Below are positions 4,888 through 17,435 of a stretch of DNA of 64,000 nucleotides, piece after piece (positions within the stretch are counted from its first letter, which is position 1; each line of letters opens with the position of its first letter). The stretch is from sequence record OL631482.1. One strand, written 5' to 3'. The notes beneath the pieces were generated by a model. That model was not told the origin of the DNA and did not search any database. It saw nothing but the letters and a program-made list of their open reading frames with translations. Made by a program: the position numbers and the translations under genes. This DNA is from Escherichia phage ECML-359.

Positions 4888-5205
4888 TTAATCTTCAATT
4901 AAGTCCTGGTCGTACCCCAGGGATATCAGTTTTGTTTTAAAGGCAGGAATATTTGTCATTTTTTCATCATTGACAAAAATCACTGGGTAACGAATGTTAA
5001 GGGTAGGATATCCAGCACGCTTAGCCAAAGACACGATTAAAGGCCTGTCATAAGCGATTTCAGAGCCTTGTTTGTTAAGGACTGAATAGAATGTATAAGG
5101 AAGGTTTAAGGAGCCCAGAAGGCTCCTGACGTGCATACAACCAGGGCATCGACCGACTTCTTCGGGGATACCATAGATTTCAATCTTAGTCGAGTTTTGG
5201 CCCAC
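4888..5205 (-). CDS. glutaredoxin/NrdH-like redoxin
   Basis: CPGC dithiol motif near N-terminus; sits next to nrdG/nrdD as T4 nrdH does. Confidence 0.55.
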   Translation of the reverse strand: MGQNSTKIEIYGIPEEVGRCPGCMHVRSLLGSLNLPYTFYSVLNKQGSEIAYDRPLIVSLAKRAGYPTLNIRYPVIFVNDEKMTNIPAFKTKLISLGYDQDLIED

Positions 5206-8777: not shown

Positions 8778-9050
8778 TTAAACAATCCTAAAACAAGGAT
8801 AATGGCATTCAACGTTACCATTATCAATTATCATATACTCAGTGATACAGGTCCATGACCCTTCAATTTCTATGGTATCAAAAAGGTATTCATCTGTTTC
8901 AACAACGTCCCAAACATTACATTCAACGTCAGGGTCAAAACGTTGTCTTAACGCATGGATAACATCACCATTTTTAAATCCTGCGTCTTGAAGCTCTTTC
9001 ATAAAACCTGATTGAGCAGCCGCATGAATATTAACAATTTCTAAAAACAT
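8778..9050 (-). CDS. hypothetical protein (90 aa)
   Basis: ORF track. Confidence 0.5.
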   Translation of the reverse strand: MFLEIVNIHAAAQSGFMKELQDAGFKNGDVIHALRQRFDPDVECNVWDVVETDEYLFDTIEIEGSWTCITEYMIIDNGNVECHYPCFRIV

Positions 9051-9224
9051 TAAAAGGCCTCATCAGCAAAGCGAAGTTGAGCTTCAAGCCAATGGATATA
9101 ATCCGCCGCGGCAAAAATTAAAGCAGATTCTTCATCAGGTAACTTACGGGAATCCGACAGTTCATAAAGTGATTTTTCAATCAGGCGGCCTTTATGACGG
9201 CCAATTTCAATTTTGGTACTCATA
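9051..9224 (-). CDS. hypothetical small protein (57 aa)
   Basis: Own translation from ATG 9224; stop abuts next ATG; not in track. Confidence 0.3.
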
Positions 9225-10151: not shown

Positions 10152-10315
10152 TTAAAGTTCCAGAATGAAGCACCAACCAGAAATAAAGGCCAACAAATCA
10201 TAGACGTCAGCCACCAACAAAAGTCACCTGCACCGAAATCATCTAATTTAGCTAGGGTCTTAGCATAACCAATACCGATGATAAGATACAAAATACCCAA
10301 CAATAATTCAATCAT
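10148..10315 (-). CDS. hypothetical small membrane protein (55 aa)
   Basis: Own translation MIELLLGILYLIIGIGYAKTL...; ATG overlaps nrdC stop and stop overlaps next ATG; not in track. Confidence 0.35.
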   Translation of the reverse strand: MIELLLGILYLIIGIGYAKTLAKLDDFGAGDFCWWLTSMICWPLFLVGASFWNFK

Positions 10316-10575
10316 TTAAAATATTCTCGCAGTTCAGTGAATCCGCCAATATGACTTCCGTCAGGAGCAAATACTTGCGGCATGGTCAAACCAATTTGAG
10401 ATTCGCGACCAAGTGCAGCCAGGAGTTGGGCAATCTTCTCATCATCAAACACACCTTTTTCTGGCATAACGTTGATGAACTCGTAAGGTTGTTTTTTAAC
10501 ATCCAAAAAACGTTTTGCATTATCGCAGAATACACAGCGATGAATAGATGAATCATAACCATATACTTTAAACAT
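10312..10575 (-). CDS. nrdC: phage thioredoxin/glutaredoxin
   Basis: 87 aa; MFKVYGYDSSIHRCVFCDNAKR...TMPQVFAPDGSHIGGF matches T4 NrdC as recalled. Confidence 0.85.
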   Translation of the reverse strand: MFKVYGYDSSIHRCVFCDNAKRFLDVKKQPYEFINVMPEKGVFDDEKIAQLLAALGRESQIGLTMPQVFAPDGSHIGGFTELREYFK

Positions 10576-10576
10576 A

Positions 10577-10834
10577 TTATTCCTTAATTCCTAATACTTG
10601 TTTGAAGGTCTCAGTATAATCGGGGTATTGACCGGTTTGTTCTTTATGTTTGACCATAATACCATAAACTTCTGAACGCATATTATTATATGAACGAGTT
10701 AAAGCAGATTTCAATACTGAATAACTATCCGGAAGTTTACCGTGTTCTTTATAATAGGCCAGAGTTAATTCACGGACCGCCTTATCAGCAGCCTCAAGAT
10801 ATTCTTTACGCTTTGCCATTTTCGTCTCGCTCAA
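10577..10834 (-). CDS. hypothetical protein (85 aa)
   Basis: ORF track. Confidence 0.5.
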
Positions 10835-11150
10835 ATTTGTGTTTACAATGTCTGCATTTGTAACGAAGAGTACTAGTCTGCCAATGGACTAACTGGACCT
10901 GTTCAGTTCCGCATTCTGGACAGTTTGGAACACGTTTAGAAGCACGTTCACGCCGACGAACCATAGCCATTACCATATCCCAATCAGGAACCTGACTATA
11001 ATCACCACAGCCATGAATCTTTCCTAACTGCACAAGGTCAGCACCCTCAGCGTTTTCAATAAATTTTAAAAGACCTTTATTAACCCCCGCTGCGGGGGTC
11101 CATTCTGGAAATGCAGTTTCTGCAATATCTTCAGCTAAACGTTGTTTCAT
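10806..11150 (-). CDS. hypothetical protein with C-terminal zinc ribbon
   Basis: CPECG...(x20)...CRHCKH four-cysteine motif. Confidence 0.5.
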
Positions 11151-12136
11151 TTAAGCAGCTCCAGAGCTTGTTCCAGTTTATCCAGACGATTAGTTGATTC
11201 TTCCCAAAGTCGCTTGGCTTTGGTATAGTCTTCAGTTGCCTTTTTATTAACAGCAAGAGCTTTATTATACGCCATTTCCAGAGCAACAATTTCAGGCGCT
11301 TTTTGTTCCACTGGCTCATTATTCAGATTATCAATCAGGTCTTCAAGGGTGGTTTCTTGCGGAGCATTCATAATTTCCTCACTTTTCTTTTTATAAATTT
11401 CTGCAACAGTTGGTTGTTTTGCACATTTAACTTCACGCAATGTCGCCACAATTTTCCAACCTTTCCAACCATGAGTACTGGTGATAGGGTCTACTTTAAT
11501 TTTTTCAACAGTGCGCATATAGTTAAGGGCACACTGCAGCTGTGAAGTAAGCGTGCTCGCGGCATCAAGATACTTTTTGACATTTTCTGGAGTAGCTACC
11601 GGCGTAAAGAATTCATACTTAACTGTAATAATTACCTGGTTTTCACCAGACTCTTTAACCTTTATCATGTGCTCAGCCAAATGGGAGATAGTGCGATAAT
11701 CGCTACCCATCAATTTTGTCGCTGATTTGATGATAGACATTTTGTTATCTCTGAATTCACGAGCCCAGCAATTTGCGAATTCAGAAACAGTATAGCCTTG
11801 TTTATCAAGGTAGTATTTTTCAACATCACCAAACCAATGATATCCAATTGTACCTTTACCATGTCTGGATTCAACGCCAAACTTATTAAGAAGGTCTTTA
11901 TTAACTAGGTATGCCAGGACTCGGGAACCTTTAAAAGTTTTCTTGATATCATCTTTACCCGCACGACTCGCAATAGTCGCGATGTCTTTCTTGAAGCGAC
12001 CAGATGCAACAATCGTCGAGTCAATCTGATTTAACCAGTAATTGATAATTAAAAGGATAGCCGATTCACCTATTAATGGTTTTACTTTTGTATCAATAGT
12101 GGTGTTAAAGGCCTGGATATATTCGTTGCGCGTCAT
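11147..12136 (-). CDS. hypothetical protein (329 aa) with C-terminal coiled-coil tail
   Basis: ORF track; heptad-like C-terminus ending LEQALELLK. Confidence 0.6.
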   Translation of the reverse strand: MTRNEYIQAFNTTIDTKVKPLIGESAILLIINYWLNQIDSTIVASGRFKKDIATIASRAGKDDIKKTFKGSRVLAYLVNKDLLNKFGVESRHGKGTIGYHWFGDVEKYYLDKQGYTVSEFANCWAREFRDNKMSIIKSATKLMGSDYRTISHLAEHMIKVKESGENQVIITVKYEFFTPVATPENVKKYLDAASTLTSQLQCALNYMRTVEKIKVDPITSTHGWKGWKIVATLREVKCAKQPTVAEIYKKKSEEIMNAPQETTLEDLIDNLNNEPVEQKAPEIVALEMAYNKALAVNKKATEDYTKAKRLWEESTNRLDKLEQALELLK

Positions 12137-12194
12137 AGTGTTCTCCTCATAAAGTAGGAATTCATTATACTCCCTCCATCCTTGGAAGTAAACA

Positions 12195-13127
12195 TTATTT
12201 TAATGCTAAAATCGCCGCCTGCAATTTATTGCGTTGTGTTTCCATATTCTTGATGCGATTCATAACATCCTGAATACTCTTTTTCTCATCTTCAATCAGA
12301 CCGTTTAAGCGGTTGACTGATTCCTGGATAGCATCAGCATGATAGCTCTCAATAGGCTTCATTGGTGGGTTAAAGATTTCAAGAGAGCTGTTTGGCTGGA
12401 TTTTCCATTGATACATATTTTTAACTTCCAGTGGTGAAATTTTAGCCTGGTCGTAAGATTTAAACTGACCTGTAACTGCTGGGTTATATGTCGCAGTAGG
12501 GATATGTTCTGCCATTTCTGGTTCCTTTTTCTCTTGATAAGGTGCATAAGACAAAAGATATTCTTTAGTTAATTTAATATCAATGACTATAGTTTTAAGG
12601 AATTTTTCCGTTTGGTGGATATAATTTGTATCTTCTTCAAACGTGTATGCTTCAACAGCATGGCGCATATAAAACAGCGCGATACCCATAACCTCTTTAA
12701 AGGTATCACAAAGAGCAACGTCGCCCTTGGTGGTTGGTTTGAACTTAATCTGTATACCATCATTCTTGATATTGATAATCAAGTTACTGGAGTTAAAATT
12801 ATAGTTCTTGATGTTAACCGGAGCCTTGCGAATACGAAGCCCGCCAGCCAGGATTTCCTTAATGCTCTTACGAACTGTGGCACCAAACAAAAACGCAGGG
12901 CGGCGACAGTAATCATTCAGAGAGTTAATTCTTACAATACGTTGTCCATACCCCTGGGTGGCAGAACCTGATTTGATTTTACCAAAGTTAACCAGAGAAT
13001 TCATCGCGATAAGACGGGTTGCACGACCTTCACGCTGTTCAAATCGAGAATATTCTTTACGTGTTTTAATGTTCATATCATAATCCAAATAATTTTTTAT
13101 AGAGTTTAGCAAAAGGCCAGGCCACAC
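12195..13127 (-). CDS. hypothetical protein (about 300 aa) with C-terminal coiled-coil tail
   Basis: ORF track; likely true start at internal MNIKTRKEY; C-terminus ending LQAAILALK. Confidence 0.55.
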   Translation of the reverse strand: MWPGLLLNSIKNYLDYDMNIKTRKEYSRFEQREGRATRLIAMNSLVNFGKIKSGSATQGYGQRIVRINSLNDYCRRPAFLFGATVRKSIKEILAGGLRIRKAPVNIKNYNFNSSNLIINIKNDGIQIKFKPTTKGDVALCDTFKEVMGIALFYMRHAVEAYTFEEDTNYIHQTEKFLKTIVIDIKLTKEYLLSYAPYQEKKEPEMAEHIPTATYNPAVTGQFKSYDQAKISPLEVKNMYQWKIQPNSSLEIFNPPMKPIESYHADAIQESVNRLNGLIEDEKKSIQDVMNRIKNMETQRNKLQAAILALK

Positions 13128-13314
13128 ACATTATAACAGCGACTACCCAGAATATAGGCCAGCAAAATGTTGTGAACACCGCATCATACTCGTCCCCACT
13201 TTCGTAGGGACTATCAAACTTGTGGAGCAACAGGGTAGTAATAAAACCTATCACAAGATAACCAAAAATAATGCTGATAATCAAAATAGTCATATTAATC
13301 CTTAAGCAATTCAA
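13078..13314 (-). CDS. hypothetical membrane protein (78 aa)
   Basis: Two hydrophobic segments; overlaps neighbour, start uncertain. Confidence 0.4.
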   Translation of the reverse strand: MNCLRINMTILIISIIFGYLVIGFITTLLLHKFDSPYESGDEYDAVFTTFCWPIFWVVAVIMCVAWPFAKLYKKLFGL

Positions 13315-14140
13315 TAACGTTCATCAGTTTCTGACGTTCGGCTTTCGCCGCGTTATTCAGTCCCGACAGACGGAAAATTTCATCATCTTGCTGCTGGATG
13401 GTGATGTTAAGCTCTTCAATCTGTTTAGTGAAAAGCTCAATTTGCTCTGAATATTTTTCATTGCTTCGCACTGGAACAGGTTCCATTTTAGGAGCTTGTT
13501 CTGAAGGGCTGACTTCAAATTGGTCTTTAATTTGGCATAATTTAATACGCTGGACGCCTCCAGTTTTAACATCATAAAAGGTAAGAATACCGTGACATTC
13601 CAGTACAGACAATGCCAAACGAAGATGGAATTTCCAATTATCATATTGACATCCACTAAAAGAAGAAATACTGTATTCACCTTCTTTTTGACCTTTAATA
13701 ACATTAAATAGTTTATAATCTAAAGAATTATTGGTTTTAAAGGTCATTTGTTTATCTTGACCGCTTGCTAAACGAGCGCCTAATGCCAATAAACGGCGCT
13801 GGTTTTTCCAAAGGTCTTTAACCACTTCATCAAACGTCATGGTGTTAATCGCACGACCATAAAGGTCATAACCTTTATTATAATTTTTAAGTAAAATTTT
13901 GGCATTAGCACGAGACAACATACCTGAACGATGAAGAGATTTCATGACTCGGTCTTCTAATGTAAGAAGACCAGTGGTCTTTTCAAAGATTTTAGTGAAT
14001 TCAGCGGAATTAGTACAAACATTGAACTTATTCCACATCATATATAGAACATTTAAAACCACATCTTTGGTGCTTGGTATACGACCAAATTTAACAACTT
14101 TTTTAACTTCAGAACGAATTTCATTAATTGCTTGCGACAT
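13295..14140 (-). CDS. hypothetical protein (281 aa) with C-terminal coiled-coil tail
   Basis: ORF track; C-terminus ending RQKLMNVIELLKD. Confidence 0.6.
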   Translation of the reverse strand: MSQAINEIRSEVKKVVKFGRIPSTKDVVLNVLYMMWNKFNVCTNSAEFTKIFEKTTGLLTLEDRVMKSLHRSGMLSRANAKILLKNYNKGYDLYGRAINTMTFDEVVKDLWKNQRRLLALGARLASGQDKQMTFKTNNSLDYKLFNVIKGQKEGEYSISSFSGCQYDNWKFHLRLALSVLECHGILTFYDVKTGGVQRIKLCQIKDQFEVSPSEQAPKMEPVPVRSNEKYSEQIELFTKQIEELNITIQQQDDEIFRLSGLNNAAKAERQKLMNVIELLKD

Positions 14141-14203
14141 AATAATTTCCTCAATAGATTAATCAAAGGTCAGAACCATTATACCATCCTTGGTATAAAG
14201 CGT

Positions 14204-15429: not shown

Positions 15430-16176
15430 ATGATTTTATCCGGAAGAACTGTTGATGAACTCAATGAAAAAGTCCAGGCTGCCTTGGCTAATAATTGGTA
15501 TTTGTTTGGTTCTACTATGGTGTTGCCGAATACCCCTACAGATAGCAAAGAGCGTTTTTTCCAAACTATGTCCAGCTCGGAAACTCAGATACCGGGCCCG
15601 CCTGGGCCAAAAGGAGACCCGGGTGTACCAGGACCAAAAGGAGACCCAGGCGGGGATGGAAAGTCTTCTTATCAGATATGGCTTGACTTGGGAAATACAG
15701 GAACTGTTGATGATTTTTTAACTGATACAGCAGGAAAGAGGGAAAAATCCGAGGTGTTTTGGAGTGGTATAAACGTTCTATTAACTAATGGTGTGACGTC
15801 AAACATAATTAGTGTTTTAAAGGGGATTCCGCCGACTGCAGGGACTCTATCTCCGTTTTTTAGAACCACTGATGATAAGTTGTGGCCATATAACCAAGAC
15901 AGAAGCCTAATGTTTAAACTCAACCTTATTGGTAATTTTACAGGAGCCTCGCAAGCTCGAAGTATAACATTAAATTTCGTTGGAACCAACGGAAACACTT
16001 ATATACAGAATCGTCCGGAAAATGCTACAGATATTTTGTCTTTTACAACGTTCTTTAGCATTGATAAAGATGGGGCAATGGCTACCAATGGTACAGCTAT
16101 AACTGTTATGCCAAATGGCGGCAACTTTACAATAACATCTGCATTGTTAGTAGCCGAACAAACAGTGACTTCATAA
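15430..16176 (+). CDS. collagen-repeat protein (248 aa), opposite orientation to surrounding genes
   Basis: Eight Gly-X-Y triplets GPPGPKGDPGVPGPKGDPGGDGKS at residues about 56-79; AAAGGAG SD before ATG 15430; hairpin terminator follows stop. Confidence 0.65.
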   Translation: MILSGRTVDELNEKVQAALANNWYLFGSTMVLPNTPTDSKERFFQTMSSSETQIPGPPGPKGDPGVPGPKGDPGGDGKSSYQIWLDLGNTGTVDDFLTDTAGKREKSEVFWSGINVLLTNGVTSNIISVLKGIPPTAGTLSPFFRTTDDKLWPYNQDRSLMFKLNLIGNFTGASQARSITLNFVGTNGNTYIQNRPENATDILSFTTFFSIDKDGAMATNGTAITVMPNGGNFTITSALLVAEQTVTS

Positions 16177-16394: not shown

Positions 16395-17435
16395 TTATCG
16401 ATAATAGGAATTGTGGTTGTCAAGATATACCTCCTCAACAAACTTGTCCCAGAACTTCATGTCCACCTTCGCAGGCATACCATTCTTAGCAGCCTGGATG
16501 GCCAGGACTTCAACTTCATCAACAGTATTTTCCAACAGGCCTTGAACTACTTTGAAAGGCATATCACCAGCTTTTATTGCTTTAATAATAGAAGCATTTT
16601 TAAGTGGATAAACCAGGTCACCAGTTTGATAGATTTCCTTCAGCTGATATCCAGCTCGGTAAGCATGACTCAATGCTTTCCAGTCAATACCTTCATTGGC
16701 TTCAGCCTTACGAGCACGTTCACCATATTCGGCATCAAGTTTATTCAGAGATTGCTTGAGCTCGATTAAAGACAGGGTGGTTTGGTACTTACGTCCAAGA
16801 ACAGTATAGAACGTTTGAGGACCTGTTTTCTCATGGTTATGAAATACCCATTCACAGAACTCGTTTTCAGGGAGCCGGTGCTTAATATCTTCTACTTTAG
16901 TTCGACGTTGTTTAATAGAACCATCTTCTTGATAATCGACCCACTGTTCAGGAATCTGGTTAACAATTGTCAGTACACCACGCAGTGCAGCCAATCGAGA
17001 ACCTTTAACACCATATTTGGAAGCTTGCTTACGGACGTACCCCAAATAGGCTTTCATGTTAGTTGTATAGAACCGCGAACGGTTGTCTTGAATAAACTTC
17101 CATACATCTGGTAAATCGGATTTGACTACCAGGTCAGCCGGGGTGTGAATCATATCCAGGGCAACGGTTTCGCCTTCGGCAGCCAGTTTAAAGAAATATT
17201 TCAGACTGAATAATTCATGGTCGATATCGTCTTTTGTGTTTTTGGTAGCCGTGTTATTCGTGTTCAGGTTTGTATGATTCATCGCGGTTCCGAGCAGGAT
17301 ATCTCGCGGATGAGGAACAAAGATTTCTTTAAAATCAACATCAGATTCTGGGGTGCTTGTTCCATAAAGGTGGCTACCGAAGTAGCCTTTCATAATAGTT
17401 TTCATTCTTTGTCCTCGAAGTGGATTACTGGGCAC
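16395..17435 (-). CDS. Pol-beta superfamily nucleotidyltransferase-like protein (346 aa; alternative start near 17405)
   Basis: N-terminal GSHLYGTSTPESDVDF fits hG[GS]x9-13Dh[DE]h, with a further DDIDHE acidic cluster about 45 aa downstream. Confidence 0.6.
   Translation of the reverse strand: MPSNPLRGQRMKTIMKGYFGSHLYGTSTPESDVDFKEIFVPHPRDILLGTAMNHTNLNTNNTATKNTKDDIDHELFSLKYFFKLAAEGETVALDMIHTPADLVVKSDLPDVWKFIQDNRSRFYTTNMKAYLGYVRKQASKYGVKGSRLAALRGVLTIVNQIPEQWVDYQEDGSIKQRRTKVEDIKHRLPENEFCEWVFHNHEKTGPQTFYTVLGRKYQTTLSLIELKQSLNKLDAEYGERARKAEANEGIDWKALSHAYRAGYQLKEIYQTGDLVYPLKNASIIKAIKAGDMPFKVVQGLLENTVDEVEVLAIQAAKNGMPAKVDMKFWDKFVEEVYLDNHNSYYR

Follow-up and report, generated by a model that had tools for sequence, protein, structure and literature searches.

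In the stretch of Escherichia phage ECML-359 DNA analysed here (64,000 nucleotides of sequence record OL631482.1, called the window below), three open reading frames (ORFs) that lie in series just past nrdC (10312-10575) encode proteins of one and the same layout: a globular body, a linker rich in proline and glutamate, and a C-terminal coiled coil. The question that this locus raises is whether different proteins have received a common tail or whether the three are diverged relatives, and what such proteins might do for the phage. A preliminary description of the sequence chose the first answer and proposed an oligomerisation or docking module common to different effector domains. The serial arrangement and the three-part layout that it reported are borne out, the layout by AlphaFold2 (AF2) models, heptad scores and residue composition. 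Its common-tail model is inverted by the statistics, because the bodies are homologous (E = 1.8e-18) and the tails taken by themselves (E = 0.008) resemble each other no more than a control does (E = 0.006).

The window comes from a VR7-like relative of T4, a coliphage in the genus Gaprivervirus; over the 3.8-kb region in question, its identity is 98.9% with Escherichia phage pEC-M719-6WT.2 and 92% with VR7. The three ORFs, all on the minus strand (Table 1), are orthologues of T4 NrdC.4, NrdC.5 and NrdC.6, and thus of catalogued, poorly characterised T4 genes; their VR7 counterparts are annotated nrdC.4, nrdC.5 and nrdC.6 and are placed between nrdC.2 and nrdC.8. The earlier placement of the ORFs in the nrdC.x interval was right, although these identities had gone unrecognised. 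The identity to the T4 orthologue is 50% for NrdC.4 (full-length), 27.5% for NrdC.5 and 49% for NrdC.6, against 68% for NrdC.8 and 81.5% for NrdC.11. Even for NrdC.5 the alignment with the T4 protein is full-length (E = 8e-26), and the DUF7235 model covers the window protein at profile positions 2-307 of 307 with 396.5 bits (gathering score of PF23882, 30 bits); T4 NrdC.5 is likewise a DUF7235 protein (420.6 bits, E = 5e-126). Synteny agrees with these assignments: the position of NrdC.4 next to nrdC.2 and that of NrdC.6 downstream of nrdC.8 are kept in VR7 and T4. T4 has a further copy, NrdC.3, which the window phage lacks, and here NrdC.4 adjoins an NrdC.2-like gene directly.

Homology of the bodies

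Pairwise BLASTP among the three proteins gives nothing significant (best E = 0.19-0.5), which explains the earlier impression that the N-terminal domains are not obviously alike. That impression stands for pairwise BLAST (E >= 0.19) and fails at the level of profiles and structure. When family profiles are aligned with hhalign, NrdC.4 matches NrdC.3 with a probability of 98.1% (E = 1e-13), and the T4 members of these two families belong to a single PHROG (phrog_1435); NrdC.4 matches NrdC.5 with E = 2e-4 over 232 columns that reach both C-termini. For NrdC.6, comparison family by family yields E-values of 0.02-0.09, not separable from controls, and its link appeared only against the merged NrdC.3/4/5 profile. 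This match has a probability of 98.4% (E = 1e-14) with all bridging sequences (described below) left out of the merged profile, and with an NrdC.6 profile made without the hybrid protein of phage Manna, the frameshifted T4 copy and the PM2 sequence. When linkers and tails are removed and the bodies alone are aligned, NrdC.6 matches NrdC.3/4/5 with a probability of 99.1% (E = 1.8e-18), and the controls (NrdC.8, NrdC.10, NrdC.11 and reversed NrdC.6) remain at E = 0.066-0.57.

The same relation emerges from more distant T4-like phages. Pectobacterium phage PM2, Serratia phage LC53, Klebsiella phage KP17 and Acinetobacter phage Stupor carry a single gene of 309-346 amino acids at this position, and these single-copy genes bridge the NrdC families; matches in the PHROG library link the families in the same way. 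With E-values calculated for a set of ten sequences, PM2_092 is matched by the hidden Markov models (HMMs) of both NrdC.6 (E = 6e-9) and NrdC.5 (E = 4e-4), and LC53_b by those of NrdC.5 (E = 9e-8) and NrdC.4 (E = 2e-4). An iterative profile search begun with NrdC.5 covered 918 ORF segments, taken from 19 loci as well as from the window; it gathers first the bridges, next all NrdC.3 and finally all NrdC.4 proteins, with zero decoys. Searches begun with NrdC.8 and NrdC.10 do not expand beyond their own families.

The AF2 models of NrdC.4 and NrdC.6 contain their secondary-structure elements in identical order, and both match the same BFVD entries at E <= 1e-5 (fHyAci03 A0A345AUV5, PM2 A0A0A0PZG4 and Acj61 E5E4A2). 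The NrdC.4 model also finds a member of the NrdC.6 family (Sf25, E = 7e-4) and an NrdC.3 protein (E = 5e-8). In an alignment of 22 superfamily sequences, the bodies have the motifs [KR]S[GR]xLSxxxAxxxLxNF, FRxNxxxxLAxxxRLxxGDxR and LxxALxxMxxV in common.

Taken together, these results establish NrdC.4, NrdC.5 and NrdC.6 of the window as diverged full-length paralogues of a T4-like accessory superfamily, NrdC.3/4/5/6. The architecture is common to the three proteins because the whole proteins are paralogues, and not because a module was grafted on different domains. The notion that a coiled-coil docking or oligomerisation module was shuffled onto three unrelated effector domains could appeal to the lack of pairwise similarity between the bodies, to the tail type and the similar terminal motif that all three proteins have in common, and to the Manna hybrid, in which an NrdC.6 body sits on an NrdC.4 linker and tail and which shows that tails are exchangeable. 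It is nevertheless almost certainly wrong: the body-only alignment with its clean controls, the likeness of the two models in fold and in BFVD matches, the merging of the families in the iterative search, and tails that are by themselves no more similar than a control helix all speak against it. NrdC.8, which has a helical C-terminus, NrdC.10 and NrdC.11 were considered as further members and were ruled out by hhalign and the iterative search.

The view of NrdC.3, NrdC.4, NrdC.5 and NrdC.6 as one superfamily with one domain plan is one of two new points, the other being a testable anti-defence hypothesis for the siblings of NrdC.5. It makes a single system, open to experiment, out of four orphan genes. 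The databases checked keep NrdC.4, NrdC.5 and NrdC.6 as separate families, under distinct Pfam accessions and distinct PHROGs. The value of this unification is moderate, in that it brings order to an accessory locus already known in the best-studied phage and reveals no new kind of system.

The linker and the coiled-coil tail

All three proteins close with a seven-heptad coiled-coil helix of 49-50 residues; the preliminary description had recognised the heptad character of this helix and underestimated its length, at about 30 residues. In the AF2 models the tail helices span 48-50 residues, as a single helix (residues 281-328) in NrdC.4 (predicted local distance difference test, pLDDT, 82) and as two (residues 231-260 and 263-280) in NrdC.6 (pLDDT 80). 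The heptad periodicity of each tail exceeds that of shuffled sequences, with a score reached by at most 0.5% of 200 shuffles (p <= 0.005), and 11-12 of the 14 a and d positions per tail are hydrophobic. Conservation follows the order a/d > e/g > b/c/f, and the register, counted from the C-terminus, is identical in the three tails. The coiled-coil character that had been proposed for the tails is therefore observed, and none of the bodies matched a characterised enzyme. Against the PDB, the superfamily profile matches only coiled-coil proteins, and only through tail positions; many of these weak matches are trimeric GCN4-type constructs, which are no evidence on the oligomeric state. A role of the tail in oligomerisation is plausible.

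The linker that precedes the tail contains 7-15% proline and 6-16% glutamate, compared with 0-3% proline in the body, and it is modelled with low confidence in NrdC.4 and NrdC.6 (pLDDT <50-60). At the other end, the proteins finish with the motif KLxxAxxLLK, whose two leucines are, besides the starting methionine, the sole near-invariant residues of the superfamily. T4 NrdC.3 ends in a tail of the same type (...GLRNAIEVLK).

Homology of the tails on their own was considered and dropped. Among all 703 ORF segments of the window, each tail-only HMM retrieves its own family only, and hhalign of the tails alone reaches E = 0.008, which does not improve on the E = 0.006 of a control, the unrelated NrdC.8 helix. 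That the tails are homologous follows instead from their place in homologous proteins, their equal length and register, and the terminal KLxxAxxLLK.

Copy number, rearrangement and rates of evolution

At the BLAST level, members of the families occur in enterobacterial Tevenvirinae only. The superfamily is present in one copy in distant genera (PM2, LC53, KP17, Stupor), in two copies in Mosigvirus AV114 and in Acj61, in three copies here and in four in T4; Tequatrovirus, Gaprivervirus and Dhakavirus have expanded a single gene to three or four copies. Turnover is uneven along the locus, as seen between the window and T4 in the contrast between NrdC.5 and NrdC.11 mentioned above. The NrdC.5 proteins of Gaprivervirus and Dhakavirus begin directly at the conserved [KR]S[GR]xLS-like motif, without the first helical sub-domain (about 50-100 residues) of T4 NrdC.5 and other members.

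Rearrangements have affected several copies. In Salmonella phage Manna (locus L013, 4203-5240), residues 1-259 of NrdC.6 (93% identical to T4) are joined in frame, at a common 'DEI', to residues 251-333 of NrdC.4 (96% identical), and NrdC.5 and the NrdC.4 body are deleted. Escherichia phage Pinarejo (locus L014, about 4950-5135) has lost the NrdC.6 body and retains an unannotated remnant, in which the ~20 initial codons are left together with a tail copy that is out of frame. The NrdC.6 of the T4 reference (NC_000866; locus L012, about 8990-9110, minus strand) deviates after ...KQIEEL and stops early; the expected tail, SIQQYDDEIFRLSGLSSKAKSEREKLIKIVDLLKS up to its stop, is intact in another frame, and other Tequatroviruses match to the end, so that either a frameshift or a sequencing error removes the tail of the T4 reference protein. 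The window NrdC.6, like most of its relatives, retains its tail.

The tail is the best-conserved region inside each family. Among eleven Gaprivervirus and Dhakavirus genomes, for which the synonymous rate (dS) is partly saturated, the ratio of nonsynonymous to synonymous rates (dN/dS) is 0.10-0.15 in the tails and 0.23-0.29 in most body regions, with 0.15 in the alpha/beta domain of NrdC.6; the values for NrdC.8 and NrdC.11 are 0.15 and 0.08. The bodies evolve at 2-3 times the rate of the tails.

These patterns bear on the idea that contacts between the tails unite the paralogues in one hetero-oligomeric complex, which works as a single machine. The adjacent, co-oriented genes and the tails, which all have seven heptads, the same C-terminal register and a common terminal motif, would be in keeping with such a complex. 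Against it, gene content varies freely from phage to phage, from one copy in PM2, LC53, KP17 and Stupor and two in AV114 to an NrdC.6 that is lost in Pinarejo and frameshifted in T4; tail conservation is specific to each family, with no cross-matches; and T4 NrdC.5 alone complements the Dsr1 phenotype described in the following section. A hetero-oligomeric machine is accordingly very unlikely.

Proposed function

The function of one member of the superfamily has been approached by experiment. Dsr1 is a SIR2-domain NADase defence protein, and T4 nrdC.5 on a plasmid restores the plating of a T4 deletion mutant on cells that carry the Dsr1 of ECOR17 (Srikant et al., eLife 2022, PMC9391042). The window NrdC.5 shares with this protein its position, linker and coiled-coil tail; it differs from it in sequence and lacks its first ~50 residues. 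The whole of nrdC.1-6 can be deleted from T4 (PMC9825161), and gp49.2, encoded close by, is an inhibitor of the OLD defence (PMC13096335).

The reading preferred here, to which a probability of roughly 60% is given, is that the NrdC.3/4/5/6 superfamily consists of early, stoichiometric inhibitors of host defences that are oligomerised by a coiled coil. The proteins would be made early in infection and would oligomerise through the tail; with their faster-evolving bodies they would bind defence proteins of the host and inhibit them in a stoichiometric manner, each paralogue being specialised for a target of its own. This reading fits the architecture, the dispensability, the turnover and the combination of conserved scaffold and variable body; the narrowness of the NrdC.5 family and the promoter-like sites ahead of NrdC.4 and NrdC.6 are also counted in its favour. 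For NrdC.4, NrdC.6 and the Gaprivervirus type of NrdC.5, an anti-defence function is inferred. If the reading is correct, the conserved tail is predicted to be a scaffold and the body a specificity surface; the NrdC.5-Dsr1 phenotype extends to the hypothesis that each sibling may neutralise another defence, and the superfamily view is a reason to screen these genes against libraries of defence systems. A purely functional analogy is offered by DSAD1 of phage SPbeta, an inhibitor of the DSR2 NADase, which also neutralises a SIR2-domain NAD-depleting defence; the sensor of DSR2 recognises a virion protein (PMC10973363, PMC10981675). DSAD1 differs from the proteins discussed here in its target (DSR2, not Dsr1) and in phage lineage.

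Several points weigh against this proposal. The sole member tested, T4 NrdC.5, is a distant orthologue of the window protein (27.5% identity), which lacks its N-terminal sub-domain. The literature searched (on DUF7235, NrdC.5-Dsr1 and other nrdC.x genes) gave no mechanistic work, and direct binding of NrdC.5 to Dsr1 is therefore an assumption. The AF2 models are of monomers, so that oligomerisation is a prediction, and they cover NrdC.4 and NrdC.6, the place of NrdC.5 in the fold resting on sequence profiles. With dN/dS below 1 in every region and dS near saturation, the rates are no proof of positive selection. Finally, one annotation pipeline labels NrdC.4 a 'replication protein'.

This last label belongs to a different explanation, in which the proteins are nucleic-acid-binding or host-takeover factors (dimeric winged-helix regulators, or accessories of replication and recombination) and the effect on Dsr1 is indirect. 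In its favour, a small beta-wing follows two helices in the otherwise helical N-terminal domain, coiled-coil dimerisation tails are common in DNA-binding proteins, and early and nucleotide-metabolism genes surround these genes, which are part of the nrdC-mobD accessory block. Nothing informative emerged on the fold of the N-terminal helical domain. Such a role is considered unlikely, and defence inhibition is retained as the preferred reading.

Scans of the proteins with Pfam, NCBIfam and PADLOC found DUF7235 alone, the remaining matches being below threshold and scattered; sequence and profile searches of the PDB returned designed helical repeats and coiled coils only; and an exhaustive profile search with NrdC.5 revealed no link beyond the T4-like phages, its profile matching just seven clusters among 1.84 billion representative proteins.

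The alpha/beta domain raises a special case of the defence-inhibitor reading. Its fold probably resembles that of phage tail terminator and completion proteins; the resemblance is likely and not proven, because Foldseek lists such proteins for one AF2 model only. In the distant member KP17_b, the alpha/beta domain has a sub-threshold match to Tail_completion_gp17 (PF11367; E = 0.019; score 15.5 bits, with the cutoff at 24.5), and among the window proteins Pfam PF11367 and its relatives have no match. With the known proteins of this class (lambda gpU, SPP1 gp17-like proteins, DUF3168/PF11367 and T5 p142) there is no significant sequence similarity, and, unlike them, the domain of the window proteins is embedded in a larger coiled-coil protein encoded in an early, dispensable region and not in the late tail module. 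Major capsid proteins of phages are the target recognised by the Dsr1 sensor; for the related Avs sensors, the targets are tail terminators and tail tubes (PMC13581612). An exapted tail terminator or completion domain on a coiled-coil scaffold could act early to decoy, or to compete for, those immune sensors that recognise conserved virion proteins. Mimicry of virion proteins in this form is quite improbable, if less so than a hetero-oligomeric machine. Were it true, the tandem paralogues would make up a set that has diversified to meet different Avs- or Dsr-type sensors, and a general anti-immunity strategy by mimicry of structural proteins, undescribed for T4, would come into view.

Organisation of the locus

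The domains of the three proteins and the sites around them are collected in Table 1. The start of the middle gene is most likely the ATG at 13076 and not the GTG at 13127 that had been taken as its beginning; the ORF itself exists and its extent is to be shortened. The ATG sits 2 nt past the stop of the small membrane ORF, and the aligned NrdC.5 homologues all begin with MNIKTRKEY. The three genes had been described as separated by short membrane and small ORFs: the membrane ORF between NrdC.6 and NrdC.5 is there and probably lies outside the NrdC.3/4/5/6 paralogue family, and NrdC.5 and NrdC.4 are separated only by a 58-nt gap with a promoter-like site.

Table 1. Features of the nrdC.4-nrdC.6 locus in the window
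Feature	Length or residues	Position (nt)	Strand	Evidence or remark
NrdC.4 homologue	329 aa	11147-12136	-	phrog_1435, E = 2.8e-137 over residues 1-329; VR7 annotation nrdC.4; homologues carry precomputed Pfam PF26897
NrdC.4 N-terminal helical domain with small beta-wing	1-145	11702-12136		
NrdC.4 alpha/beta (beta-beta-alpha-beta-beta) domain	146-235	11432-11701		
NrdC.4 linker	236-280	11297-11431		
NrdC.4 coiled-coil tail	281-329	11150-11296		
Promoter-like site upstream of NrdC.4		12164-12192	-	TTTACT, 17 nt, TATAAT; then ribosome-binding site GAGGAG
NrdC.5 homologue	293 aa	12195-13076	-	DUF7235 (PF23882), E = 1.2e-118; phrog_2351
NrdC.5 body	1-190	12507-13076		
NrdC.5 Pro-rich linker	191-243	12348-12506		
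NrdC.5 coiled-coil tail	244-293	12198-12347		
Small membrane ORF	71 aa from ATG	13078-13293	-	phrog_7899, E = 2e-28; EAWsc9 annotation 'TMhelix containing protein'
NrdC.6 homologue	281 aa	13295-14140	-	phrog_2257, E = 2.3e-119; precomputed Pfam PF26899
NrdC.6 N-terminal helical domain	1-132	13745-14140		
NrdC.6 alpha/beta domain	133-203	13532-13744		
NrdC.6 linker	204-230	13451-13531		
NrdC.6 coiled-coil tail	231-281	13298-13450		
Promoter-like site upstream of NrdC.6		14178-14201	-	GCTTTA 14196-14201, TATAAT 14178-14183; then ribosome-binding site GAGGAA

The two promoter-like sites, after each of which comes a strong ribosome-binding site, contain an exact 10-mer, CCAAGGATGG, at 12176-12185 and 14184-14193 (both on the minus strand), which occurs nowhere else in the window; both copies sit between the -35 and -10 positions. 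The 10-mer is kept at equivalent intergenic sites in 15 of the 19 related loci, including those upstream of T4 nrdC.3 and nrdC.7, and it could be a duplicated promoter or regulatory element. The hexamer GCTTTA in the site upstream of NrdC.6 resembles the MotA box of T4 middle promoters.

Among the neighbouring genes, the NrdC.2-like ORF (10806-11150, minus strand), whose start overlaps the stop of NrdC.4 by 4 nt, has a C-terminal zinc ribbon (CPECG...CRHCKH) for which the Pfam zinc-ribbon matches are weak. On the other side of the three genes, an ORF of 248 amino acids (15430-16176, plus strand) lies on the strand opposite to the surrounding early genes and contains a collagen-like stretch, GPPGPKGDPGVPGPKGDPGG; its counterpart in phage EAWsc9 is annotated as a 'tail-NK domain-containing protein'. 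The NrdC.11 nucleotidyltransferase (16395-17435, minus strand) is far better conserved and more widely spread than its neighbours: it matches 1518 phage records, some of them from phages of Vibrio, Aeromonas, Caulobacter and Ruegeria, and the NrdC.4, NrdC.5 and NrdC.6 families are narrow by contrast.

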